Below, one piece after another: positions 3,744 to 44,136 of a stretch of DNA of 64,000 bases. This DNA is from Sphagnum compactum (lineage: Eukaryota): the NCBI GenBank assembly GCA_965153455.1, contig OZ234493.1, positions 16,544,213 through 16,608,212 of the forward strand. Reading direction: 5' to 3'. The position numbers and the translations under genes were made by a program. Every line of letters begins with the position of its first letter. The stretch's first letter is position 1. The notes under the pieces were generated by a model. It worked only from the letters and a program-made list of their open reading frames with translations, was not told the origin of the DNA and searched no databases.

Positions 3744-3800
3744 TATGAAAAAACCATGGAAGACCTTTACAAGGCTAGTGTTCATGAATTAAACAATGGA
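3744..3800 (+). pseudogene. Isolated degenerate TPR unit upstream of the main array
   Basis: tatgaaaaaaccatggaagacctttacaaggctagtgttcatgaattaaacaatg translates YEKTMEDLYKASVHELNN, matching the array consensus YQGALEDLDKADVLEPNN. Confidence 0.65.
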
Positions 3801-3819
3801 ATCATTTAAATAACACAAA

Positions 3820-4346
3820 ATCAAGGGAGCACCGAAATCCAATATAGACCATGTAGTTGGTTGCATAGGTAATCTTGGTCTGCCTACATGAGGGCGGCCT
3901 TTAAAGAGAGGGCTCACGCTATGGAAATTCCAGAAGAAATCCTGCAGGCTCTGTTTACCATGTACGCAGAAGGAAACGATGCGCCCCTAGATTTTCTTTT
4001 TGTTTGCTGTGTGCTCTCGTTTAACCGTCTTGGTCTTGAGAGAAGGCCTCGCACAGCTTCTTGTCGCATAAATTTAGGCGTGGGCTTGAGGTTTTTTATT
4101 TGAAATCCTCTAGGGTCCAAAATTCATAGCAAAATGGTCGCAGGAAGAAAACCGAGAGGAATGTTAAATGACCTGGCCTCCCTGACTTGACCTTCCAGTT
4201 ATGCTCCTGCAGCTCTACCGGTTCCCCTCGGTTTCCTTGTTGTTGGAATTTTCCTGTATGCTTTCGTGCAAGTAAAAAATAAATATATATTTTTTGCGGG
4301 CCGATCCCGTGATTGCGTCTTCGACTCTTGCCTGGTTCGGCAGGTT
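3820..4346 (-). other. Foreign GC/CpG-richer insertion (block A) inside the TPR array; possible 5' part of a group II intron (organelle-derived?)
   Basis: Abrupt composition change between TPR remnants on both sides. Minus strand reads ATGCGACAAGAAG from 4069, one change from the IIB-type GTGCGACA start. 3878-3910 is 32/33 identical to 39294-39326 in the block that carries domain V. Boundaries are approximate. Confidence 0.5.
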
Positions 4347-6313
4347 TATGTGGAAAATGTGAAAAAAAACGTTGAAACATTATCAAGTAGCCTTGGAAGA
4401 CCTTGACAAACATGATGTTATTAAATCAAGCATCGCAAATATTTTAAGGATTTTTATTAACAAACAGGTGTTGAATAATTATGAAAGAGCTTTCAAGGAC
4501 CTTGACAAGGTTCATGTTTTTGAACTAAACAATGCATTCACTTTGAAAACTTATGGAAAATGTCAAATATATGTTGCATGATTATCAAGGAGTAGCCTTG
4601 GAAAATATTCACAAGACTCATCTTCTTGACTCAAACAATGCATGCACTTTGAGAATTTTTGAACATGTTGGATGATTATTAAGAAGCCTTGGAAGACCTT
4701 GACAAGGTTGATGTTCTTGAACCAAACAATGCATTCCCTTTGAGGACTTGTGAATATGTCAAAAGGATGTTCCATGATTATCAAGGAGCCTTGAAGGACC
4801 TTGACAAGGTTCATGTTCTTGAACTAAACAATGCATCCACTTTGAATAGTCGTGAAAGAGTGAGATATATGTTGAATGATTATTAAAGACCTTTGGATGA
4901 CCTTAACAAGGTTCATGTTGTTGAACTAAACAATGCATTCACTTTGCAAATTCGTGGAGAGGTCAAAAAGATATTACATGATTCTCAAGGAGCCTTGAAG
5001 GACTTTGATAAGGTTGATGTTTTTGAACCAAATAATGCATTCACTTTGCAGACTCGTGGAGAGGTCAAAAGGATGTCGGTGATTATCAAGGAGCTTTGGA
5101 GGAGTTCGACAAGGTTAATGTTCTTGACCAAAACAATGCAATCACTTTGAGGACTCATGGAAATGTAAAAGGGATGTCACATGACTATTAAGGAGCCTTG
5201 GAGGACATTGACAAGGTTGATATTGTTCAACCAAACAATGCACTCATTTTGCGAACTTCTTGTAAGGTCAAAAAGATGTTTGATGACTATTAAGGAGCCT
5301 TGGACGACATTCACAAAGCTGATGTTCTTGAGCCAAACAATGCAACCACATTGAAGATTCGTGGAGATGTTAAAAAGATGTTGCATCACTATCAAGGAGC
5401 CTTGGAGGACTTTCACAACGTTGATGTTCTTGAACCAAACAATGCACTCATTTTGATTATTCATGCAGAGGTCAAAAAGATGTTGGATGACTATCAAGGA
5501 GCTTTACAAGACCTTGACAAGGCTGATGTTTTTGAACCAAACGATGCATTCACTTTGAGTGTTCGTGGAGATGTCAAAAGGATGCTAAATGACTATCAAG
5601 GAGCCTTGGAAGACCTTGACAAGGCTGATATCCTTGAACCAAACAATGCATTCACTTTGAGGAGCCGTGGAGATGTCAAAAGGATGCTACATGACTATCA
5701 AGGAGCCTTGCAGGACCTTGACAAAGCTGATGTTCTTGACCCAAACGATGCATTCACTTTGAATGTTCGTGGAGTTGTCAAAAGGATGCTACTTGACTAT
5801 CAAGGAGCCTTACAAGACCTTGACAAGGTTGATGTTCTTGAACCAAACGATGCATTCACTTTGAGTGTTCGTGGAGATGTCAAAAGGAAGCTGGATGATT
5901 ATCAAGAAGCCTTGGAAGACCTTCACAAGGCTGATGTTCTTGAACCAAACGATGCATTCGCTTTGACTGTTCGTGGAGATGTCAAAAGGAAGCTAGATGA
6001 CTATCAAGGAGCCTTGGAAGACCTTGACAAGGCTGATGTTCTTGAACCAAAGGATGCATTCACTTTGAGTGTTCTTGGAGATGTCAAAAGGAGGCTAAAT
6101 GACTATCAAGGAGCCTTGCAAGACCTTGACAAAGCTAATGTTCTTGAACCAAACGATGCATTCACTTTGAGAAGTCGTGGAGATGTCAAAAGGATGTTAG
6201 TTGACTATCAAGGAGCCTTGCAAGACCTTGACAAGGCTGATGTTCTTGAACCAAACGATGCATTCACTTTGAATGTTCGTGGAGCTGTCAAAAGGAAGTT
6301 GTATGATTATTAA
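4347..6313 (+). pseudogene. 5' portion of the TPR array, disconnected from the kinase ORF by stops and frameshifts
   Basis: Frameshifts in 4347-5190. TAA replaces the Gln codon of DYQ at 4680, 4884, 5189, 5291 and 6311. Units between 5294 and 6310 are otherwise intact and in frame with the downstream ORF. Confidence 0.75.
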
Positions 6314-8605
6314 GGAGCCTTGCAAGACCTTGACAAGGCTGATGTTCTTGAACCAAACGATGCATTCACTTTGAGTGTTCGTGGAAATGTCAAAAGGATG
6401 CTACTTGATTATCAAGGAGCCCTGCAAGACCTTGACAAGGCTGATGTTCTTGAACCAAAGGATGCATTCACTTTGAATGTTCGTGGAGATGTCAAAAGGA
6501 AGCTAGATGACTATCAAGGAGCCTTGGAAGACCTTGACAAGGCTCATGCTCTTGAACCAAATGATGCATTCACTTTGAGTGTTCGTGGAGATGTCAAAAG
6601 GAAGCTACTTGACTATCAAGGAGCCTTGCAAGACCTTTACAAAGCTTATGTTCTTGAATCAAACGATGCATTCACTTTGAAGAGTCGTGGAGATGTCAAA
6701 AGGATGTTAGTTGACTATCAAGGAGCCTTGGAAGACCTTGACAAGGCTGATGTTCTTGAACCAAACGATGCATTCACTTTGACCGTTCGTGGAGCTGTCA
6801 AAAGGAAGCTCGATGACTATCAAGGAGCCTTGGAACACCTTGACAAGGCTTATGTTCTTGAACCAAACGATGCATTCACTTTGAGTGTTCGTGGAGATGT
6901 CAAAAGGAAGCTCGATGACTATCAAGGAGCCTTGCAAGACCTTGACAAAGCTGATGTTCTTGAACCAAACGATGCATTCACTTTGAATGTTCGTGGAGAT
7001 GTCAAAAGGAAGCTAGATGACTATCAAGGAGCCTTGCAAGACCTTGACAAGGCTGATGTTCTTGAACCAAACGATGCATTCACTTTGAGTGTTCGTGGAG
7101 ATGTCAAAAGGAAGCTAGATGACTATCAAGGAGCCTTGGAAGACCTTGACAAAGCTAATGTTCTTGAACCAAACGATGCATTCACTTTGAGTGTTCGTGG
7201 AGATGTCAAAAAGAAGTTGGATGACTATCAAGGAGCCTTGGAAGACCTTCAGAAAGCTTATGTTTTTGAACCAAATGATGCATTCACTTTGAGGAGTCGT
7301 GGAGATGTCAAAAGGAAGTTGTATGACTATCAAGGAGCTTCGGAAGACCTTGACAAGGCTGATGTTCTTGAACCAAATGATGCATTCATTTTGAGTGTTC
7401 GTGGAGATGTCAAAAGGAAGCTACTTGAGTATCAAGGAGCATTGCAAGACCTTGACAAAGCTGATGTTCTTGAACCAAACGATGCATTCACTTTGAAGAG
7501 TCGTGGAGATGTCAAAAGGATGTTAGTTGACTATCAAGGAGCCTTGGAAGACCTTGACATGGCTGATGTTTTCGAACTAAACGATGCATTCACTTTGAAT
7601 GTTCGTGGAGCTGTCAAAAAAAAGTTGTATGATTATCAAGGAGCCTTGCAAGACCTTGACAAGGCTGATGTTCTTGAACCAAACGATGCATTCACTTTGA
7701 GTGTTCGTGGAGATGTCAAAAGGAAGCTACTTGACTATCAAGGAGCCTTGCAAGACCTTGACAAGGCTTATGTTCTTGAACCAAACGATGCATTCACTTT
7801 GAATGTTCGTGGAGATGTCAAAAGGAAGCTACTTGACTATCAAAGAGCCTTGCAAGACCTTGAGAAGGCTTATGTTCTTGAACCAAACGATGCATTCACT
7901 TTGAGTGTTCGTGGAGATGTCAAAAGGAAGCTCGAGGACTATCAAGGAGCCTTGGAAGACCTTGACAAGGCTTATGTTCTTGAACCCAACGATGCATTCA
8001 CTTTGAAGGCTCGTGGACATGTCAAAATAGTGTTATATGACGATCAAGGAGCCTTGGAAGACCTTGACAAGGCTTATGTTCTTGAACCAAATGATGCATT
8101 CACTTTGATGAATCGTGGAGTTGTCAAAAAAATGTTGCATGACTATCAAGGAGCCTTGCAAGACCTTGACAAGGCTGATGTTCTTGAACCAAACGATGCA
8201 TTCACTCTGAAGACTCGTGGAGATGTCAAAAGAATGCTACATGACTATCAAGGAGCCTTGGAAGACCTTGACAAGGCTAATGATCTTGAACCAGACAATG
8301 CATTCACTTTGAGGTTTCGTGCAGTTGTCAAAATCATGTTGCATGACTATCAAGAAGCCTTGGAAGACCTTGACAAGGCTGATGTTCTTGAACCAAACGA
8401 TGCATTCATTTTGAAGACTCGTGGATATGTCAAAAAGGAGTTGGATGACTATCAAGGAGCCTTGGAGGACCTTCACAATGCTAATGTTCTTGAACCAAAC
8501 GATGAATTCATTTTATCAGATTATGCCCACACGAATTGGAGTTTAAACAAATATCAAGCGGCATTGGAAGCCATGGATAAACTTCTTTTTATCAATCCAA
8601 ATGAT
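4347..8605 (+). repeat. Tandem array of ~102-bp units encoding 34-aa TPR motifs (~41-42 units)
   Basis: Consensus AFTLSVRGDVKRKLDDYQGALEDLDKADVLEPND has canonical TPR G8, Y17, A20, L24, A27, P32. Exactly 31 x 102 bp without indels from 5342 to 8503, a divergent capping unit at 8504-8605, and ~9-10 degenerate units at 4347-5341. Confidence 0.97.
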
Positions 8606-9187
8606 GATTTTATATTACGAGTTCGAAAATGGTTGAAATGGATGTTGGATGTATATCAACCCACAATAGAATTGTTGCCATTCAAATCAAATATTCAATC
8701 TTTTCCATACAATGAATTGAATCGTGGAAGAATATTGGGGAAAGGAATCTCTAGTAAAGTGTATCAAGGTTGTTGGAAAAACACCGAGATTGTGATTAAA
8801 GTTTTGGAATGGAGTGGCGACCATAATGAAGGTGCAAAAAGATTTTTCATATCAGAAGTGAACACCTTGGGATCAATTCAACATAACAATTTGGTTCGTC
8901 TTAAGGGCTATTGTATCGAAGGTCTACAACACATGGTGGTGTATGAATACATTTCAAATTCATCTCTTGACAAATGGCTCTCTGAAAATAAGATTTTGGA
9001 TTGGGATAAACGAATATGCATCATTATAGGGGTTGCTCAAGGATTGGCACACTTGCATCATAAATGTGATCCAGTTATTCTTCATCTTGACATCAAACCA
9101 CAAAATATCCTTTTGGATAAGGATTACACCCCAAAATTGGCTGATTTTGGGTCGGCAAAATTTTTAAATGGCCGGGATGAAAATGTG
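6398..9187 (+). CDS. TPR-array/protein kinase fusion, exon 1 (~21 TPRs + kinase subdomains I-VII)
   Basis: First in-frame ATG after the 6311 stop is at 6398 (true start uncertain). TPRs run directly into LGKGISSKVY, IVIK, FISEV, HNNLVRLKGYC, HLDIKPQNILLD and ADFG. Donor GTG|GTATGT at 9188. Confidence 0.88.
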
Positions 9188-9576
9188 GTATGTTCCCCAC
9201 CTTTTTTTTTGTTGATTAAGTGCATGGCATTATATTTTAGTGGAATTATGAACCTTGCAAATTTGAACACTCTTGTGGGCCACAATTTATTAATTTTATA
9301 TTTTCATTATTGTAGGTCATGGAATAAATATGATAAACAATCACAATTTAAAATGAATATTTGAAAAACACTTAATGTAATAATTCATATTACAATTTTT
9401 TTTTATGTGTGCACAAGTAATGACACAAGGATTGCAACTTTTGTTATTAAAAAAAAATCAAATTCCCTATTGGTATTAGACTATCTTGGGTGTGGGTTTT
9501 ATGAACTTCAACATTTATATTCAATGCATGCAATGCCCATTGAAATTATTGATTTTTAAAAAAAAATTACATTCAG

Positions 9577-9888
9577 ATTGCATTAGCATCAACTTCTACG
9601 CCAGGAACAATCGGATATATGGCACCAGAAATTCATTTAAATCAAGCATCGACAAAAAGTGATGTGTACAGCTTTGGAGTATTGTTGATTCAAATTGTGA
9701 ATGGATCACCATTGACTTTAGATGGAAAGAAAGTTCACATTCGCGACTTCATCCGATGGGTACGAAAGGTTCATGAAAAAGAAAATGGATTTCAACAAAT
9801 TTTTGATGTTGCAATCAATAATTCAATTGCCGGGTTTGATCAAAATGAAGCCAAATCACTTTTGCAAATTTCCCTTCAATGCATCAAG
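9577..9888 (+). CDS. TPR-kinase exon 2 (subdomains VIII-X)
   Basis: Acceptor ttcAG at 9575-9576, phase 0. Translates IALASTSTPGTIGYMAPE...KSDVYSFGVLL...ISLQCIK. Donor AAG|GTAAAT at 9889. Confidence 0.9.
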
Positions 9889-9967
9889 GTAAATTTTGTG
9901 CCAAACCTTTTATTTTATCAAAAACCTAAAATCATGGATTCGATGTAATATTTGAAACAATATGAAA

Positions 9968-27589: not shown

Positions 27590-28860
27590 TTCAAGTCCAA
27601 AATCTATGTCAATTCTAAAACGTAGGTTTTTTGGAATTGATGTAGGTTTTGATATCCATACCTTTTACTTTGCAATGTTAATAAACAATTGAAACTTATG
27701 TCAATTCCCAAAAAACCTATGTCAATGTAGGTTTTTTGGAATTGGCCTAGGTTTTGATATTCACATCTTGCGCCCATCCTATATTGATAAACATTTGAAA
27801 ATCCAAAACCTATGTCAATGTAGGTTTTTTGGGAGTGGACATAACCTTTGATATCCATGCCATGTGCCTATCCAATTCCAATAGAAAATTGAAAATAAAA
27901 AACTAGCACCCAACTTGCATAAATTCCCAAAAAATCTATGTTGACATAGTTTTTTTGGAATTGACATAGGTTTTCATATCCACGCATTGTACCTTTGCAA
28001 TGTTGATAAACAATTGTAAATCCAAAACCAATGCGAATTCAAAGAAAACATATGTTGATATAGGTTTTTTTGGATTGACATAGGTTTTGATATCCATGCC
28101 TTGTGTTAGTCCAATGTTGATAAACAATTCAGAATCCAAAATCTATGTCAATTTTTTTTAAACCTACGTTGACATAGGTTTTTCTAGAATTGACATAGGT
28201 TTTGATATCCATGCTTCATACTCTACAATACTAAACAATTGAAAATACAAAACCTAAAAATCCAAAACCTATGTCAATGTAGGTTTTGATATCCATGCCA
28301 TGTACTTGTCCAATATGGATAAACAATTGAAAATCCAAAACCTATGTCAATTCCAAAAATACCTACATTAATGTAGGTTTTTTTGGAATTGGCATAGGTT
28401 TTGATATCCATGCCTTATGCTTTGGAATGTTGATAAACAATTAAATTTTTTAAACCTACGTCAATTCCAAATAAACCTACATTGGCATAGGTTTAGATAT
28501 CCATGCTTTGTATTCTACAGTGTTGAAAAACAATTGAAAATTCAAAACCTATGTCAATTCCCCAACAACCAACAAAAAATGTTAATGTAAGTTTTTTGGG
28601 AATTGATGTAGGTTTTAATATGCATTTTTTACTTTGCAATGTTGATAAACAATTGAAAATATAAACCTACATCAATCCCCCAAAAACCTATGTCAATGAA
28701 GGTTTTTTAGGATTTGGGAATGAACATAGGTTTTGATATCCATGCCTTGCCCCCTTGCAATGTTGATAAACAATTGAAATCCAAAATCAACACTAATTCC
28801 CAAAAAACTTATCTTGATTTATGTTTTTAAAAAATTGATGTGGGTTTTGGTATCCTTTTC
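27590..28860. repeat. Tandem array (~11 units, ~110-125 bp) of internally palindromic units
   Basis: Unit: aaatccaaaacctatgtcaattcc...aaacctatgtcaatgtaggttttttggaattgacataggttttgatatccatgc[variable]caatgttgataaacaattg. aaaacctatgtcaattcc is the reverse complement of ggaattgacataggtttt. Confidence 0.9.
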
Positions 28861-33290: not shown

Positions 33291-36200
33291 TTCCCTCTCA
33301 AGCTCAAATCCACTTCTAGTACACCAAACATTTTTCTAAACTTCCTTAGTTTGTCTGTACCCAAAGCCTTTGTGAAAATGTCAGCAACTTGATCTTTAAT
33401 ACTGACATGAATAAGGTTAATTTCTTTTGCTAGAACTTTTCTCTAATAAAGAAGTAGTGCACCTCAATGTGCTTTGTCCTAGCATGATAGATCGGGTTGT
33501 TTTAAGTAGTATGCTACTAATGTTATCACAATAAATGACAACAAGAGCATCCATTGATTGTCCCAAATCTGAGAGTAGTTTTTGTAACCAAACTACTTCA
33601 CATGTAGCAATTGTTGCGCCTCTGTATTCTACCTCCGTGCTTGATAGTGCAATTGTTGGTTGTTTCTTACTACAACTAACAACACCACTTCTAAAAAAAA
33701 ACATGAAACTAGTGGTTGATCTTCTATTTGAAACATTGCCAACCCATTCATCATCAGAGTATCCATGTACTTATAACTAGCTTTTGACTTCATAAAAAAT
33801 TCCACACTGCAAATTATGTTTTATGTACTTCAATATGCACCTCACTGCATCCAAATGTGGCTTTTGTGGTGTTTGCATGAATTGATTCACCATTCCAAAT
33901 ACATATCTCAAATCTGGCCTTGTGATGGTCATGTAAATCAAACTCCTCACTATGCACATGTACATAGTGGTATCCTCCACAAGGTCTCCTTCATATGCAC
34001 TTGACTTCACATTTTGCTCCAATGGAATTGAAATGGGTTTGCAACCCGTCATCCCATATTTAGACAATTTGTTTAAGGCATATTGCCTTTGCAGTAACCA
34101 TATCCCTTTAGGGGACTGGATTACCTCATTGCCGAGGAAGTAACGTAATTCTCCCAAATCTTTCATCTCAAACTTTTGCTTCAAAAGCTTCTTGAAATCA
34201 AAGATGTCTGCACCACTATCTCTTGTGATAATAAAGTCATCAACATAGATGACTATGATTGCAATCCCATGATCTGTCTTTTTCACATATAGTGAAAAAT
34301 CTGCATTGGATGTTTGAAATCCACTTGTGACAAGATATTGACCTATCTTGTCTGACCAAGTTCTAGGTGCTTGTTTCAAGCCGTACAAAGTTTTTTTCAA
34401 CCTACAAACCAAATTAGGATGTGTTTGGTCAACATAACCTGGTGGTTGTTTCATGTACACTTCTTTTTGTAAATCTTCATGAAGAAAAACATTCTTTACA
34501 TCCATTTGATGTAAAGACCATCCTTTTGTTGTTGCCATAGCAATGATTACTCTTACAGTTGTCATTTTGGCAACTGGACTATAGGTCTCCTCATAGTCTA
34601 TGCCATAAGTTTGGGCATTATTTTTGGCAACCAATCTTGCTTTATATCTACTCATAGATCCATCTGCATTGTGCTTGACCTTGTACGCCCATTTGCACCC
34701 AATTGCTTTCTTGTCCTTTGGTAAAGCTACCAATTCCTAAGTAGCATTAGCATCCAATGCCGCCATCTCTTCATCCATGGCATTGTCCCACTTGGGGTTT
34801 TCAACCACCTATTCAAAACAAATGGGTTCAACCTCCTGTATAACTCTCACCATGTACGCATAATGATGAGCTACAAAGCCATCATATGTGAGTCTTTGTA
34901 CAGGGTATTTAACTCGTGTGGATCTTCGTATTCCATTGTTGTTGTCAGGTGTTTTTAAAGCTTTCTTGGCCATCCAAGCTCTGGGAGTATTAACTGAAGG
35001 GACTTTTGATTCTTCATCCACACTCTTCTCTAAATCACTTGACTCACCATCTACATGAGAATTTCTAGATGATGTTTGAGAACTACCCTGTACAATGTTT
35101 AAAGATTTTAATCTTCCTTTCCATGGAGTGCTATTGGACCCACTAATTGAAAACTCTTGTGGTCCATTAATGAATTGTGATTCTTGTTCCACATTTGATG
35201 AAACATCACCATTTCTAGCCTCTCCATCTTTTGCTATCTTCAGTGGTGAGTACCAGCTAACCATCTCATCAAACACAATATCTTTACTCACTTGCAACTT
35301 TCGAGTGGAAGGGTTGAAGCATCTATATCTTTTTTATTCTGAGGAATATCTAATGAAGATACACTTTTCAACTTTTGGATCTAGTTTTGATCTCTTCTCA
35401 TCATGAACATGCACATATGCAATGTAACCAAACACTCTGAGGTGTGAGACATCTGGTTTCTTGCTTGTGAATTTTTCTTCAGGTGTCATGCCATGAACTG
35501 CCGCTGTGGGTGTTTGATTCATGATATAGACTATAGTTGCTACCGCTTCAGCCCAAAAGTAATTTGACAATTTTTTTTCATTTAACATGGCACATGTTAT
35601 TTCTACAACGTGCCTGTTTTTCCTTTTAGCAACTCCATTCTGCTGTGGGGAATAACTACATGAGTACTTCCTTTGAATTCCATGCTCCTTCAAGTACTCA
35701 CTGAATTCATTCGAAAAATATTTTCCCCCTCCATCCAACCTTAGGCACTTGATGTTCACACCTTTCTCCTTCTCCACCATTGCTTTGAAAATCAAAAAAT
35801 GTTGAAACACTTCACCTTTGTGTTTCATGAAATAAATCCACACCTTCCTTGTGTGGTCATTAATGAAACTCACGTAGTACCTGCATCCTCCAATGGATTC
35901 TGTCTTCGTGGTCCACACATTTGAGTGGATCATTTCCAAAGGTTTGGAACTTACATGAGTTGTTTGAACTGGGAATGGATGCCTAGCTTGCTTCCCCAAT
36001 TGGCATGCTTCATAAACTTCTAACATCACCTCTTCTATTCCAAATTTGGGAAGACCTCGAACAAGATTTTGTTTTTCCATCAATTTAAAACGTCGGAGAT
36101 TAACATGGCCAACCCGCTTGTGCCAAATTCCAATGTCTCTAGCTCTTTTTCCATGTTTGAATAACATGGAATTCACCTTAGGCATGTTCACATCCAAGGT

Positions 36201-37995
36201 GAACATTTGTCCATTCCTTTCCCTTTTTGCAATCAATTTGCCTTGGTCTTTCATGTCTTCCACAAAACATCCATTAGGGTTGAATGTCACCTGTAAACTT
36301 TGTTCCACCATCTGGCCTACGGAGACCAATTTTTTTGTTATGGTTGGAACATGAAGTACATATTTTAAGTACTTTGTTTGCCCGTTTTGCATGGACAATG
36401 ACACCTTGCCAATTTGTGTGATGGGATGTGTAGTGTCATCATCAGTTTCCACAAACCCTGGTGTTTTCAAATCCCTTGTGTTTCTAAACCATTCTTCATG
36501 ATTCGTCATGTGGTTTGAAGCTCCAAAATCACATACTAGACATTATTATCTCATACACCTATCATTGAATTTGCCATGTACTACATCATAAACAATTGCT
36601 CATCACCTTGATTGCTAATTGATGCATAATTCCCTTGTTACAGCTTTCCATTTCGTGCATCATGCTCCCTTTGATAATAGTTCTTTGCCATGTGCCCAGG
36701 TTTCTCGCAGTAGTAGCAGTTTGAGTCGTTATTTGGTTGTTGACTTCAATGATTTCCACCACAACCTCCATGACTTCCTCTTCCTCCAAAGTTTCCTTGT
36801 CCACCTCCCTGAAGCTGACCTTCATGTTGATGATGTCCACCATGCGAGCTTCTGTGTCGACCTCGAAATGAGGTTTTACCACCTCTACCTCTACTTCTAT
36901 TAGTATTTGAATAAAAAACATTTTTTTGTGATCTTCTATTGGATGAAGTACCAACAATTCTCATCCCTTCACTTATAAGTAGGGTTATTAAATCTTGAAA
37001 ATGGGGAAATGTTTCTCAAACTGCAATTGAAGTACAAAACTAGCTATAGTATTTTCCAAGTCCATTCAAGGTCACAGTCACTAGATCTTCATCATCTATA
37101 GGGGCTCCTATAGATACAAGAACATCTGCAAGGTTTTTCACCTTTGTAGAATAGTCACTGATGTTCATTTTGTTTTTTTGTAGATTATGCAACTCTTGTT
37201 TGAGCTGCATTTTGCGAGCTTGGGTATTGGTGCTATACATCTTCACCAATGTATCCCAAGCTTGCTTGGGTGATTGTGCATCTTGAATATGCACAATCAT
37301 GGAATCGGACACACTCATAGAAAACCAATACAAGACTTTCCTTGGTTTTTCATGTTAAGTTTTGTTGGCTTGAATTTGTTGTTGTGTGAGGTTTTCTAGG
37401 AGAGGAGGTTCTTTCTCATCACCAGTTATGAACTCCCAATAACCTTTCCCCATCAAGAAATTCATAATCCTAAATTTCCACACTTAGAAATTATTCTTGT
37501 CTAATTTCTCAATTACAATTTGAGAAAGATCGTCCGCCATATCTCAAGACAACTTTCAATGTCTTCTTGGGGTTTCATAAATGATTTTAATTCCTTCCTT
37601 GAGTTTCTAGGATTAGGATTAGGGTTTTCCTTCCTTAGTTTCTAGGATTACGGTTAGCGTCAAGGTTGAACAAGATGGACCTTGCATATGTATGTATGTC
37701 TTGAGTATTATACGAAATTTTATACTATACATAGGTTTTACGTATATGTACGTATTTCGTGTAATATTTGTATGGTATTAAATACATGATTTTGTATGAA
37801 GGTTTTGATAATGTATTTGCGCTCCTCAATCTTCAAACTCCTTCCTTCAAGTTCTCCCAAGTTGTATTTGCTCCACTTCAAAAATTTGTTTTAATGTCTT
37901 CTCAATATAAACTTTTGTCACAATAACTTTGCAAAGCTATGACCTTGGATCGATCTGAAATTCCGGTGAACCATGAAAAACTATGTCTATTACCA
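32971..37995 (-). mobile_element. Decayed Ty1/copia LTR retrotransposon, 5' LTR missing
   Basis: Minus-strand order gag (MADDLSQIVIEKLDKNNF*VWKFR from 37540), protease (GASNHM ~36510), integrase (WHKRVGH, 35334-36509), RT (IGCKW, HQMDVKN, IYVDD, 33777-34733), RNase H (SSTEVEY, IYCDN). Many stops and frameshifts. Confidence 0.95.
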
Positions 37996-37996
37996 T

Positions 37997-39330
37997 CTCT
38001 CAAACTTTTAGCTTGTTTAACTTCATAAAATGAGAGATCTTGCTACTTCCTTGAAATCACCTCAAACTGGGACCTGAACACAAAATGACTTACAACTCGC
38101 TCTTAGCAACTCCAAATTCTTTGAGAGTTTGGAAGACACATTAGATATATGTCTTCTATATATGCGTAAAATTTCAGCTCTATTGATGATGACCACAAAG
38201 AGTTATCTCTTTCAAAAGAAATTGATTTCAAAACTAAGGCTGAAACTTTAGCTGGTATAATGAAAATACCAACAATAGTTCTAGCAAAAAGAAGAGTAAT
38301 AACGATCTTTTGTCCCATACCTATATAAATATTAAAAAATTTACAATTATCACTCGCTTCCTTTATAACAAGTCGACTAAGTCTATTAATCTTTTTATTA
38401 TAGTAAGCATGATATCTTGGATCTTTTGCTGGAAATGCCATTTTCAAGATTATTGAGAGCGCCTCTTTTAGTATCAACAAATATTTTAGAGGCATTTCAA
38501 TCTATATCCTGAGATCCATGGCCTAATGGCATCTTTAGTTTAGCTATTTTGGGTAGTCATTTTTTCCTGTTTATTAACAAAATAGGCTTCTCGTGATTAA
38601 GAATCTTGGATTGATAATTACTATAAATATCAACAAAACTCTTAAAATACAAAAGTTTGTAGGAAGCACAAATATGGAAATCTATTAGTAGTTTTACCAA
38701 TAAATAAAAAATCATGACTAGTGCGGCTAATAATATACTAGGGAAGTAAAAATTTAGTAATAGCAATAATATTAGAAAAAGATGTGACAAGATTCGGAAA
38801 TAATAATCAGAAACATGCAAAATCCATGATTGGTTGGACTTCAAGCTTGTTGATTGAAGACCTGAAAAAAAAATCCTATAAATCATCATATATAACAATA
38901 TAACACCCTTTTATCGTATCTGCTATTTGAGCAATAAAAAAAGGCTATTTGTGGCATTATTAGGTTAAGAAGGGATATATAGTAGTTTTAAGGGAAATGG
39001 CTTGGTTCTTATCCTCCCCCTCGGTCAGAACCACACGTGCAAGTTTCCTTGCATGTGGCTCGTCCATGATGACTTCTTCGAGTTTATAAACCAAGACCCC
39101 CTAGGGCCAAGCCTACATAAGCGAAACATAAAACTGATTATGTTCAGAGTTGGTGTCATGCCATATTGTCTTTTACTTTGAAAGGGTTTATTGATTATGT
39201 TTGTAGGTAGATTAATTCAATTTGCTACTTTGCCCAGTTCGTTCCTGGTTTTTTTTTTATGGGTGCTTGATCTAAAGTATATGCCTGTGGTAAGTCTGTC
39301 TACATGAGGGCGGCCTTTAAAGAGAGATCT
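37997..39330 (-). other. Foreign block B replacing the copia 5' LTR and central RLK exons; carries group II intron 3' domains and two orphan ORFs
   Basis: No copy of the 3' LTR and no HRD/DFG/APE exons where expected. Contains domain V (39028-39061), ORFs 38557-38898 and 38103-38495, and the 33-mer shared with block A. Left boundary approximate. Confidence 0.6.
39028..39061 (-). ncRNA. Group II intron catalytic domain V
   Basis: Minus strand GAGCCACAUGCAAG-GAAA-CUUGC-AC-GUGUGGUUC: 34 nt, AGC triad, 9-bp basal stem, AC bulge, 5-bp upper stem, GAAA tetraloop. Followed by a G-rich DVI-like stem (gagggggaggata...tatcccttctt) with a possible ...cctaAT 3' end at 38959. Confidence 0.92.
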
Positions 39331-39538
39331 CTAACTCCCTTTTTAAATGTTGTTGAACCATACAAACACAATAAATATTTATAAATATTTCATGTAACTT
39401 TAATTTGTTAAGATTTAACTTAAATTGTTTAAAGTTATGTCAAGTGAAAAGATAATTTGGTTGAATCCGTCAGTACCAAAATTTAACATGTGTGTGCATT
39501 TTCCATTGTCGTGAAACACATGTTAAACTTTTTGGCAA

Positions 39539-39790
39539 GCTTGCTTTTTGCATGAAAACAAGATGTTGCAAAATCTAATTGACCAAAATCTAGACACTGA
39601 CATCAATTCAAAAAGTCAAATACGTGTGATCAATTTGACATTCTTATGTGTGCAAACAATACCAACGACATGTCCATCAATGCAAGTCTTGGAATTTTAC
39701 AATAAAGATGGGTTGTCATTGGAACTTCCCAACAATAATGATGGCATGGTGGAACTTGAAACATGTTGGATCCTTGGTCATACATAATAT
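39539..39790 (+). pseudogene. Receptor-like kinase pseudogene, last kinase exon
   Basis: ACFLHENKMLQNLIDQNLDTDINSKSQIRVINLTFLCVQTIPTTCPSM matches the RLK AWxLxE..L.ELVD...RVI.IALLCxQ..P..RPSM pattern. Same strand as the exons at 32175-32830. Confidence 0.75.
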
Positions 39791-41724
39791 GATGACATAT
39801 TTATGTGTATGGGCCATTGAACAACTTGTGGTACTAGTAACCATGACATCCACAATTTCAACATGGATAGTGCACATTCGTTTTATCTTGAAACATGCAC
39901 TTGCTTGGAATTATTTTTTAAACAATTTTTTTTCAACTCTTATCGCATATTCACCACCTTAGCACTTCCTTCAACACAAGTGAGCAACTGATGAAGATAA
40001 TGCTACAACATGTGAAGTGTTTCAAATTGTAAAGGTCCACCTCTTTATGTACTGTCTTTTTCAAATTAGTTCATAGATTCATTCAACACAACCACATAAC
40101 CATAAAACTTTGCAATGTCATGTTTTAGCATCCCTCACTTCCTTCCAGGAAAGTAGGTGTTGCAGCTCAACAAATATGTTCTTTTAACTTGTAGTCATCA
40201 CACCCCATCCTAGAATGTGTTGCTTCTTTGCCAATCCCTCATGTTATTGTGAAGGAAGTTGCAACAAAGTTGGCATCCTTCTTTAACAGAAAAAAGTCTT
40301 TCCCTTGAAATAAGGGCATCTGTGAACCATGTCCAAAACAACTAAAGTTGTTGTTGATGCAATGGATGCTCCCTCAGGGCAATGTGATTTCATGAATTCC
40401 AATTCCATGGCCATGGTGCTAATCTTGAATTGAGTTATAATTTGGAGGGCAAAAGAGAGATTTTCACCCATTCCAATCTTGGGCTTTAGAGGTTGGACCA
40501 GATTTGGTGGGATAGGTGAATTGTGACATAAGTCCACAAATTAAAACATAGTGCATGGGTTATTCTATCTTGGTGGAGATGGCTTCACAGTACTTAGAAA
40601 AATAACCAAATTCACCATAGTACAATTGTCATTCTGGATGTTTGAACATTATAGCCGACCTTGTTCTTACAGAGTTGGGGTCACTAGGTACTGGGTGTAT
40701 GAGTCATCCAACTTTGTTTCAAAACCCTAAGAATTACCCAATCTTGCTAAGGCCTGCAAGGATGAAGATCCTGTAAACTTATTTTAGATGTCCATGCTGA
40801 CACAACAAGTGTGCTTCTAAACTCAGAAGTGTACTTCTGAGTCTGATATCCTAGCAATGAATCAGATGACGACGTCATCTCATACTACTAGCATTCCATA
40901 ATTCTGAAGAGAGAAAAGAATGTGCCCCATCCAAGAAACTAACTTTTGAGGGTGCAATGCACACTGGCATCTTCATTGCTGAGAAGCTGACACAGATTTG
41001 AAGAGTTTTTTTACTGTAATAGCTCAGATAGTAGACACCTGACATTTCAGGTGGATTGGACAACAAAAGTTCAATGAATGCATTGAATACAACACACCTC
41101 AAGTGTCAATGTCAACTGCACATCTCACTGTCTATTCAAACTCTTTGGTAGTTGCAAACAAAGTACTTCTGAGGCCTTTAATATTCTCCCCTCCTTGTTT
41201 GCAAATTCACATCCTCAGATCATATCTAAAACAAGCAAATATCACCAGGATGATATCAGATGATGAAAATCAGTCTTGTCGTAACATTACAAGTGTCACT
41301 TGCAAAGTATCAGACAATCAACTTCACTATGAATAGCAATGACTAGCTGCCATGACACCCTACTCACTTCATCAGCTCCCAATAGCGGGTGTAGAGAAGT
41401 ATAAATAAAATAATCCGATTACCCCATTGATCAGTCAGACAACCCTGGAACTTATTTGATAACACAACTACCATCTCTGGCCAGATCATGATATCTGGAC
41501 AACAGGGCATGAATCTTTATTACCCCATAGATCAGTCAGGCAACCTGTTTGATTGCAGGTAGAATTGCTGGGGCAAAGTAAAAAGCTTACAGATTATGAA
41601 TGCACATGTTGTGTACAGTTATTGTGTTAAAAGCCCTTAGATACTTGGTCCTTCCTGTCATATTAGTATTTTTGGCAAGCTGGGTCTCCATGTTGGTTCC
41701 TGCTTGCATTCTCATCCATCCAGT

Positions 41725-44136
41725 TCACCTGGCAATATCCAATCTGTCCAAGAAGTCTCATAACCTGTCCATATGAAGACAAAATCAAAACAACATTGGA
41801 TTCAAAAACTGCAAGCCATTACAACAAGTGGCACATAACCTTCAAAATGCAGAATAGAATGAAATCCTTCTCCAACATTAGAGAGGGCAGAAGCTTTCAG
41901 AAGTTGCAACACTCAAACCCTTTATCTGCCAGAATAATTTCTCCCTTCACCTGACAGCAACACACTTAAGGTCTGATATCAAAGAACATGGATGATTGCA
42001 GTCAGGAAGCCACAAAAAATCACAGCAGCGTAGTGTTGAGCTTAAAATGATGTATGCATCTTGACCATCTTTGGTCATCTTACATCCTGACCAAAGATGT
42101 TAAGAATTTCATGAAAACCACAAAAGGATCAGACAAAAAAAAGGAGAAAACCTTTCAGCAAGGGGAGCCTGAAAAGCTTACCGAACATTTTTGGCAATGA
42201 CAGTGTTCCCATCAGCAGCATCATGGTGACGTAACTTCACCTCCTCCCTACTTCCATCTGTAAACATATGCTGCACATGAAGGAAATTCAACATATGAAA
42301 CCAGCTAAATATGCAAAATCCTGAGCAGGACCATCCGATGCCAACTGGAGTTGTCAAATGGTGTTAAGACAACATGGTCACATGGGGGTCAGCTACACTC
42401 TGACATCACAATTTGAGTTGCACAGAGGACAGAGAACAAAACAAGCTGGTTTCCTTACCTTATAGAAGCAGCTAGTTCCAAAGGGACAGGTTCCATTTCC
42501 ATAGTCAAAATACTTGCAATCAATATCACTGCACACACAAATACACCCCTAACATTCAATTACAAAAACATTGTGCATGTATTTTTACATATGTGTGCAT
42601 CAGGAGCTAAGGTAAAGCATTCTATGTGTTCTCACATAAGAATGCAAACACCTAGAGACCAATAAGGACTTTGGGGTCACCCCTTATGCCTCCATGTCCA
42701 CATGATCTCCTTGATTGCTTGAATTGTTCAAGGGATGGAAAAGGAGGGCGTACACCAGTCATTTAATGTGCAACACACCACCCACCTATGACAAATCCGA
42801 GCACAATCTATATACACAAATATTGACAAATCAGGCACCCAACCAAATAAAACACTGATGGTCACAGCTGGGTGCAGCCACATGACAAGCCTACCAGAGT
42901 GGCTGCGCCAATCTTCCAAGTCAAAATCCAACCAGCTGGCCGGTCATTAGACAGATCCATAATAGGGTGAGTATGACCTTAAAGGGCAATTACATATCAG
43001 GTACCATCTGTCAAGTAGCATGTCAGATGGGTAATAAAACCTCAAGTCGTGATAGGGACATCAAATAGAACAAACAGCTTTAGGTTCTCATGCACACACC
43101 TGAGCTTGTTCTTATAACCGTTGATTATATCCTCCTTTTCTTCAGACTTGAGTACCAAACAACACTTGGGACTATAAAATGTGAAGCTACTCGACAAACT
43201 GGGCAGGCCTGCACAACAGTATCAATGTCCATCCACGTGCATGAGAACCACTCCGCCAACCCCGTATACAGCCAACACAAAATGGATGATCACAGCCCGA
43301 CATTAATCCAAATTTCCGCTCAGCAACTGATGGCTTTGAAAGCACCCACTCCAGACAGACACTGCATTCAATTTCTTGGCTCTTGCGAAGTGCCTCAAGC
43401 TTCTTCTGGTTACGTTCACACTGCTGCCTGTGGCTATCACGTTCTGATGGACGAAATGGATGCAAACAATGCTTCCCACAAGTTGGGCACAAGTCACCAT
43501 GAATCTGCAGGCAGTTATCACCCTGAGGGCATATGCCAGCAGCTGCAAACGCGCAGATTGGGATCTCACTCGGGTCGTTGGACCTTGGCATTTCAATCTC
43601 TTCAACATCCTTTTCATCATCTTCTTCCAGAAATCGGGGACCCAGATTAGCCTTGCCTTCTGTGAGTTGCCAGGCACTTTGTGTATGGGTATTGCTTGAG
43701 CCCTCTTCTGCCCTACTTGTGTCTGGAGATGAGTTAAGAGCTACCACTGAAGGTCTTGGTGGGGAAGGGAGAGGATTATTTGACACTGGATGGGACAGTT
43801 TTACATGCTCATACCTGCAACGACTGCCATAAGAACAAAGGCCACGCTGATAAAATGTGCATACCTGCACATGATCATACAACAATCAGTACACACACAT
43901 GACAGGACCACTGAAAAAACAATGTTCTAATTGAGGGGAAAAACAAAGCCATGCGCAAACTGAAAGCTGTGAGCATAATCTTTTTCCAGAAAGGAAACAC
44001 TTTTAACACATGAAGCTTGTTAGAGGAGAGACGATGCTCTTTACTTACCTGGCTAGCCTGGTCACTCCAGCTATGACAGAACATGCAATCTTCTCCTTTC
44101 AAACACGCTCCATGCATGAAGAACTTGCATAACACC
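41725..44136 (-). pseudogene. MKRN: Makorin-type E3 ligase (CCCH zinc fingers + RING), probably pseudogenised
   Basis: Exons 44136-44049 (VLCKFFMHGACLKG), 43864-43100 ([19 protein letters not shown]...CSVCLE...[14 protein letters not shown]...ACPVCR), 42528-42459 ([21 protein letters not shown]), 42270-42182 and 41764-41725. All junctions GT-AG with consistent phases. 1-nt frameshift at ~43233 and TGA at 41758-41760. Start exon not resolved. Confidence 0.88.

Follow-up and report, generated by a model that had tools for sequence, protein, structure and literature searches.

Nuclear surroundings of the locus

The window, that is, the whole 64-kb stretch of DNA that was analysed, has a nuclear setting: it holds copia domains, a TPR-kinase gene and a CCCH zinc-finger frame, and the sequencing-run contigs over the flank have a depth of 12–27. 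The features around the locus are the following.

5294–9948, forward strand: TPR-kinase gene, in long frames interrupted by stops or introns, with many TPR repeats ahead of a protein kinase domain (Pfam)
33777–37483, reverse strand: degraded, stop-broken interior of a copia-type retrotransposon (Pfam Retrotran_gag_2, gag_pre-integrs, rve and RVT_2)
33777–34736, reverse strand: reverse transcriptase of the copia element (Pfam and ORFs)
35334–36542, reverse strand: protease/integrase of the copia element (Pfam and ORFs)
37040–37483, reverse strand: gag of the copia element (Pfam and ORFs)
37619–38816, reverse strand: multi-copy repeat adjoining the copia gag on its upstream side, ending at 38816 (protein relatives and run contigs)
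43187–43885: CCCH zinc-finger frame (Pfam)

The TPR-kinase gene is probably what the original prediction had called an RLK, the extracellular part being of TPR and not LRR type. No tRNA genes were found in the 64-kb window. At 27600–28850, degenerate direct repeats of ~77–150 nt (families D1–D5, 60–81% alike) form a cluster.

The repeat next to the copia element was recognised from a 132-aa frame at 38103–38501, which had 16 diverged relatives annotated as "hypothetical protein" (64–89% identity), some of them extending to 37619; these look like spurious ORF calls within the repeat. The genome-contig collection gave no relative of the repeat frame (P0004). The extent from 38502 to 38816 was defined by the run contigs only, which reached a depth of ~235–270 over 38300–38816 and showed a loose end at 38816, where the other copies of the repeat continue. 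No second copy of the 37619–38816 repeat was present inside the window. Neither an LTR pair nor a tRNA-Met primer-binding site for the copia element was found in the window, so the element is undatable, and that the repeat may be its LTR or 5′ region is a guess. The wider block 37997–39330, which the original prediction had proposed to compare with the organellar genomes, did not hold as a single organellar insertion, as 37619–38501 belongs to this multi-copy, apparently nuclear repeat.

A domain V hairpin on the reverse strand

We searched the 64-kb window with the Rfam models and folded the candidate hairpin. The results revealed a sole match at gathering level, that of RF00029 (Intron_gpII, a model spanning only DV–DVI of group II introns) to 38959–39063 on the reverse strand, scoring 52.7 bits (gathering threshold 40; E 1.7e-07). 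The 34-nt domain V (DV) within it, 39061–39028 on the reverse strand, carries the AGC triad, the 2-nt bulge and the GNRA loop of a group II intron and folds at −18.9 kcal/mol (z −4.95), with 0 of 200 shuffles folding equally well. The canonical 34-nt DV of the original prediction was thus recovered at exactly its predicted place, both by fold and by the Infernal/Rfam check that had been proposed for it. The exact 34-mer was present in 10 metagenome contigs and had 0 matches in either the genome-contig collection or the viral-contig collection.

The fragment comes from mitochondrial nad2 intron 1

We compared the whole window by BLAST with the 10 metagenome loci carrying the exact DV 34-mer (L001–L010), which are proxy contigs and not the mitochondrial genome of the species itself. 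The results showed that five of the 10 loci matched at 95.7–98.3% over 202–234 ungapped nt, always inside 39004–39237 (L006, 230/234; L008 and L001, 229/234 each; L002, 198/202; L003, 224/234). Two others (L005 and L009) were 79% identical to the window, and the match of the remaining three (L004, L007 and L010) was limited to 46 nt around DV. Outside these matches, no part of the window was similar to any of the 10 loci. The 234-nt block 39004–39237 is an ungapped, 97.9–98.3% identical copy of the 3′ portion of nad2 intron 1 on moss-type contigs of up to 141 kb. It takes in the distal stretch that precedes DV, the whole of DV and, from DVI, the 5′ strand with the loop.

39004–39237, reverse strand: NUMT fragment, nt 761–994 of the 1004-nt nad2 intron 1 (ungapped contig matches)
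39028–39061, reverse strand: domain V hairpin, 34 nt, with the same letters as the mitochondrial copies (Rfam and fold)
39004–39024, reverse strand: DVI remnant, 5′ strand and loop only (alignment with L008, L006, L003 and L009; Rfam alignment)
38959–39003, reverse strand: pseudo-DVI 3′ half and "AY end", with no intron homology, part of the neighbouring piece

The intron was identified on L008, a locus on a contig of 141,455 bp; another contig of the matching type is 110 kb long. On L008, a nad4-like Proton_antipo_M gene, present with its 3′ end, is followed in order by nad2 exon 1, the 1004-nt intron and exon 2. Exon 1 has 52 codons, from MFEHDF... to ...GLLSV, and stands directly before the intron start GTGCG. 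The exon 2 frame has 442 residues, reading LITILLLAAGAPL... after the first five, intron-encoded residues; the exon opens with LITILLL, matches the plant mitochondrial Nad2 of the solved complex I (E 6e-227, with the alignment beginning at residue 51 or 62, according to the chain) and also Pfam Proton_antipo_M. As 52 codons correspond to 156 nt, the L008 intron is nad2i156g2, and this position (after codon 52, nt 156 of nad2) was found on the source contig and not inside the window. In PMC13662536, nad2i156g2 stands among the listed moss mitochondrial introns.

The DV sequence alone is insufficient to identify the intron, as the identical 34 nt also occur in a different intron on L004, L007 and L010, standing before a Nad1-like exon (~residues 177–220 of plant Nad1). 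Zumkeller & Knoop 2023 (PMC10012718) gives nad2i156g2 and nad1i477g2 as paralogues of family F07, which explains why these three contigs share the DV; their intron fits nad1i477g2, the vascular-plant paralogue. The window and nad1i477g2, the tracheophyte paralogue of nad2i156g2, have the 34-nt DV in common, but their similarity covers only ~46 nt around it, hence nad1i477g2 is not the source. With nad2i156g2, in contrast, the window shares ~98% identity over 234 nt on moss-type contigs in addition to the identical DV, although the copy amounts to 23% of the intron; lacking the 5′ 760 nt, the last 10 nt and the exons, it is not a whole intron unit. The adjacency of nad4-like and nad2 genes on the matching contigs, together with the "moss metagenome" labels of RNA runs that contain part of the stretch, suggests that the source moss of the window has a mitogenome close to these contigs. 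The resemblance of DV to land-plant mitochondrial introns, noted in the original prediction, was therefore supported by colinearity at ~98% with the nad2 intron over 39004–39237. So was the supposition of a NUMT relic, for which a colinear mitochondrial match had been named as the mark of an ordinary NUMT: the proxy contigs with adjacent nad4 and nad2, standing in for the mitogenome of the species, match at 229–230 of 234 ungapped positions.

The copy is truncated on both sides

The fragment lacks intron nt 1–760 (76% of the intron) and the final 10 nt. Homology begins abruptly at 39237 on the upstream side and stops downstream at 39004 after ...GGATAAGAACC. Directly past ...GAACC, the window departs from all four aligned mitochondrial copies (L008, L006, L003 and L009), which run on with CTATCGGTAT and then exon 2. 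According to the Rfam alignment, the true DVI on L008 is a compact stem, CCGAGGG...CCUAUCGG, followed by UAU, and its fold has an unpaired A in the 3′ strand. The window copy is without the DVI 3′ strand, the bulged branch A, the 3′ splice site, the terminal AY and both nad2 exons. Domains I–IV with the 5′ GUGYG were likewise absent, with only intron nt 761–994 matched when the window was compared with the 10 loci by BLAST, and no flanking nad2 exon was found on either side of the fragment in the same BLAST and alignments. Thus, DV aside, the features that define a group II intron are missing, namely a DVI with branch A and a 3′ splice site 7–8 nt downstream, domains I–IV and host exons.

The homologous part alone, 39004–39063, scored 48.0 bits with RF00029 and was flagged as 3′-truncated. 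The extra 45 nt (38959–39003) added 4.7 bits, with low posterior probability and pairs marked as non-standard, and 38959–39027 folded at z +0.67, with 154 of 200 shuffles folding at least equally well. The DVI-like stem of the original prediction therefore failed, with homology ending at 39004 and folding at chance level, as did the candidate AY end at ~38959, which lies in unrelated sequence because the copy broke off 10 nt before the true intron end. A covariance model can evidently stretch a truncated match to full length through chance pairings. The remark that no organellar exon could be recognised behind DV was correct: no nad2 sequence flanks the fragment, and Pfam gave no significant family for the 12 frames across 37738–39307. 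The cut 10 nt before the intron end accounts for the lack of a translatable exon past the putative splice site.

The fragment is probably the middle piece of a patch

Logan contigs from four runs, three of DNA and one a metatranscriptome labelled "moss metagenome", were aligned to the stretch. High-depth contigs tiled 38300–39326 in separate pieces, with break points at 38814/38816, 39004, 39237 and 39326 that were common to the runs; at every break point the abundant source continued into other sequence, with the same loose ends in several runs. Contig depth was in the hundreds over the patch and ~12–27 from 39327 on. Two further pieces, each overlapping its patch neighbours by 1–3 nt, were delimited in this way.

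38814–39004, no strand assigned: flanking piece A, 191 nt, ~95–96% like high-depth contigs diverging on both sides
39237–39326, no strand assigned: flanking piece C, 90 nt, resembling contigs of depth 301–731 diverging on both sides

Piece A was covered at a depth of 359–744 among the DNA-run contigs listed and 521 in the RNA run. The RNA contigs with pieces A and C (2794 and 1688 nt) had depths of 521 and 731, respectively, and the nad2 intron contig 433; such similar depths fit mitochondrial transcripts. Pieces A and C are each probably another organellar fragment, and the pattern suggests a three-piece patch at 38814–39326 (~513 bp) whose pieces come from three different sites in abundant DNA that is probably mitochondrial.

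Alternatively, the nad2 fragment could have been captured by a repeat or mobile element of the nucleus, pieces A and C being parts of the repeat and the fragment perhaps standing in several nuclear copies. In favour of this, the patch adjoins the multi-copy repeat beside the copia gag, some of piece C has a second occurrence at 3878–3910, and a depth-12 contig of DNA run X2 carries a 92% copy of 39004–39131 with a different flank. However, in all four runs the abundant sources of piece A, piece C and the nad2 intron diverge from the window at every junction, and these loose ends indicate that the abundant forms are not joined as in the window. The RNA depths of A and C also resemble that of the nad2 intron, as those of mitochondrial transcripts would, and the X2 copy ends at 39004 merely because the window leaves the intron there. 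We therefore regard capture by a repeat as unlikely, and a patch of separate organellar pieces as the better account.

Two imperfect or partial relatives of the fragment were observed among the run contigs, namely the X2 copy mentioned above and an RNA contig of run X16 (246 nt, depth 868) that is exact over 39004–39048 and whose loose end leaves the L008 intron–exon 2 sequence seven letters later. They may represent further forms of the intron, sequence from other species, or NUMTs of greater age.

The recurrence of piece C was located by BLAST: 39294–39326 (33 nt) is found again at 3878–3910 with 97% identity. By eye, the likeness extends 13 nt further to ~3923, into the own continuation of the piece-C source past 39326. 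The 3878–3923 stretch is either a second, small capture from this source, or else it points to a nuclear repeat as the source; it would be strange for a single mitochondrial spot to have been captured twice, at sites 35 kb from each other. The 40-nt stretch 3884–3923 had 0 matches in the genome-contig and viral-contig collections. It lies in a GC-richer block at ~3800–4400, which gave no notable Rfam match and a 76-aa frame without a protein relative; the surrounding 600 nt have 42–51% GC compared to a background of 25–34%.

Decay since insertion and the intact domain V

The fragment differs from the best-matching mitochondrial references at 4–5 positions in total over 234 nt. Four sites (39154, 39115, 39110 and 39087) were specific to the window relative to all five close references. 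All four changes are C:G>T:A in the direction from mitochondrion to window, two on each strand, and the high-depth contigs of all four runs show the mitochondrial state there. RNA editing would yield C>U on the sense strand only, and the observed pattern fits deamination decay of nuclear DNA rather than editing. At commonly quoted plant nuclear rates, a divergence of ~2% would correspond to a few million years.

With so few changes, ~0.6 would be expected in the 34-nt DV, and the chance that none fell there is (200/234)^4 to (200/234)^5, i.e., 0.53–0.46. An untouched DV thus had a chance of about one half, and no selection is needed to explain it. The intact DV had originally been read as a sign that the insertion was younger than its mutated neighbours or constrained; the first half of this proposal agrees with the 4–5 differences in 234 nt, and the second is made unnecessary by the no-change chance.

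Junctions and the possibility of an assembly artefact

No run contained at least half of the sampled words of 38300–39900; the best share was 0.45, and part of them was present in 20 of the 24 runs listed. A contig of run X1 (depth 12, 0 differences) spans 39212–39404, crossing the 39326 junction with the variants of the window in piece C and extending 25 nt past 39237 into the nad2 fragment; X1 may be the source sample of the window. Among the contigs listed, none bridged the junctions at 39237, 39004 or 38814 with at least 31 nt on both sides. The window state at the four C>T sites was absent from the X1 contigs listed, which is not evidence of absence because contigs drop rare variants. Zones without contig cover (e.g., 39380–39540 in X2, X5 and X16) are uninformative.

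An assembly chimera, in which mitochondrial reads were mis-stitched into a nuclear scaffold so that the fragment is not nuclear at all, would accord with the very-high-depth mitochondrial contigs found over the same 234 nt in all four runs and with the three of four junctions left unbridged among the contigs listed. However, a chimera would be expected to carry the organellar state, whereas at the four C:G>T:A sites the window agrees with none of the mitochondrial references and with none of the high-depth contigs of the four runs. The exact X1 contig, moreover, leads from inside the nad2 fragment over piece C to the low-copy flank, and a clean 234-nt piece between two short pieces with 1–3-nt overlaps has the look of end joining and not of a read mis-join. 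A chimera is unlikely, somewhat more so than capture by a repeat, and the data favour a genuine insertion.

Origin of the locus

Taken together, the stretch 39004–39237 is very probably an ordinary young and short NUMT without function, derived from nad2 intron 1 of a moss-type mitochondrial genome. In this reading, the 234-bp piece from the 3′ part of the intron would have been ligated into nuclear DNA, probably through end-joining repair of a break and together with the two other short, high-copy and probably organellar pieces. The outcome would be the ~513-bp patch between the truncated copia-associated repeat and low-copy nuclear sequence, followed by C:G>T:A decay in the nucleus. For pieces A and C, we infer the mitochondrial origin, and likewise the filler-DNA mechanism, from the contig depths and break points. 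DV looks perfect because the insertion is young.

A NUPT, i.e., a fragment of a chloroplast group II intron, is very improbable. Weak sub-threshold matches to Rfam plastid intron families did occur over DV, but the plastid DV family reached 31.5 where gathering level is 61, and the clpP D1 family 20.5 where it is 140, while the 234 nt match at 98% the intron between the nad2 exons beside nad4. A plastid origin was rejected on these far-too-low family scores and the ~98% nad2 intron match. Equally improbable is that the nuclear copy is transcribed and its DV RNA active (e.g., binding nuclear-encoded mitochondrial splicing factors before their import), or that the patch was spread by the copia-family repeat; the RNA contigs do not separate the nuclear copy from the mitochondrial transcript.

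The least probable account, with a negligible chance, is that the locus is a nuclear group II intron element, functional or constrained, in which selection preserves DV. Although this DV is the same as the mitochondrial one and folds perfectly, only nt 761–994 of 1004 are present, the branch A, 3′ splice site, exons and maturase frame are absent, and the adjacent intron sequence shows C>T decay that left DV untouched with the even chance given above. A splicing-competent intron was rejected on the absence of the branch A, the 3′ splice site, domains I–IV and the exons.

The ordinary NUMT favoured here resembles other plant NUMTs, including mosaic or "filler DNA" insertions at repaired breaks, in being a short, non-coding, near-identical colinear copy beside transposon debris, and in its abrupt ends, its 1–3-nt overlaps and its C:G>T:A decay. 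There is no difference of substance; the piece happens to include the 34 nt by which a group II intron is most readily recognised, and a "perfect" ribozyme domain in nuclear DNA is explicable by the youth of the NUMT. In work with mitochondrial reads or intron markers on this plant, the locus should be masked as a NUMT. The patch as a whole would illustrate, on a small scale, organellar filler DNA lying next to a retrotransposon repeat that has been truncated.
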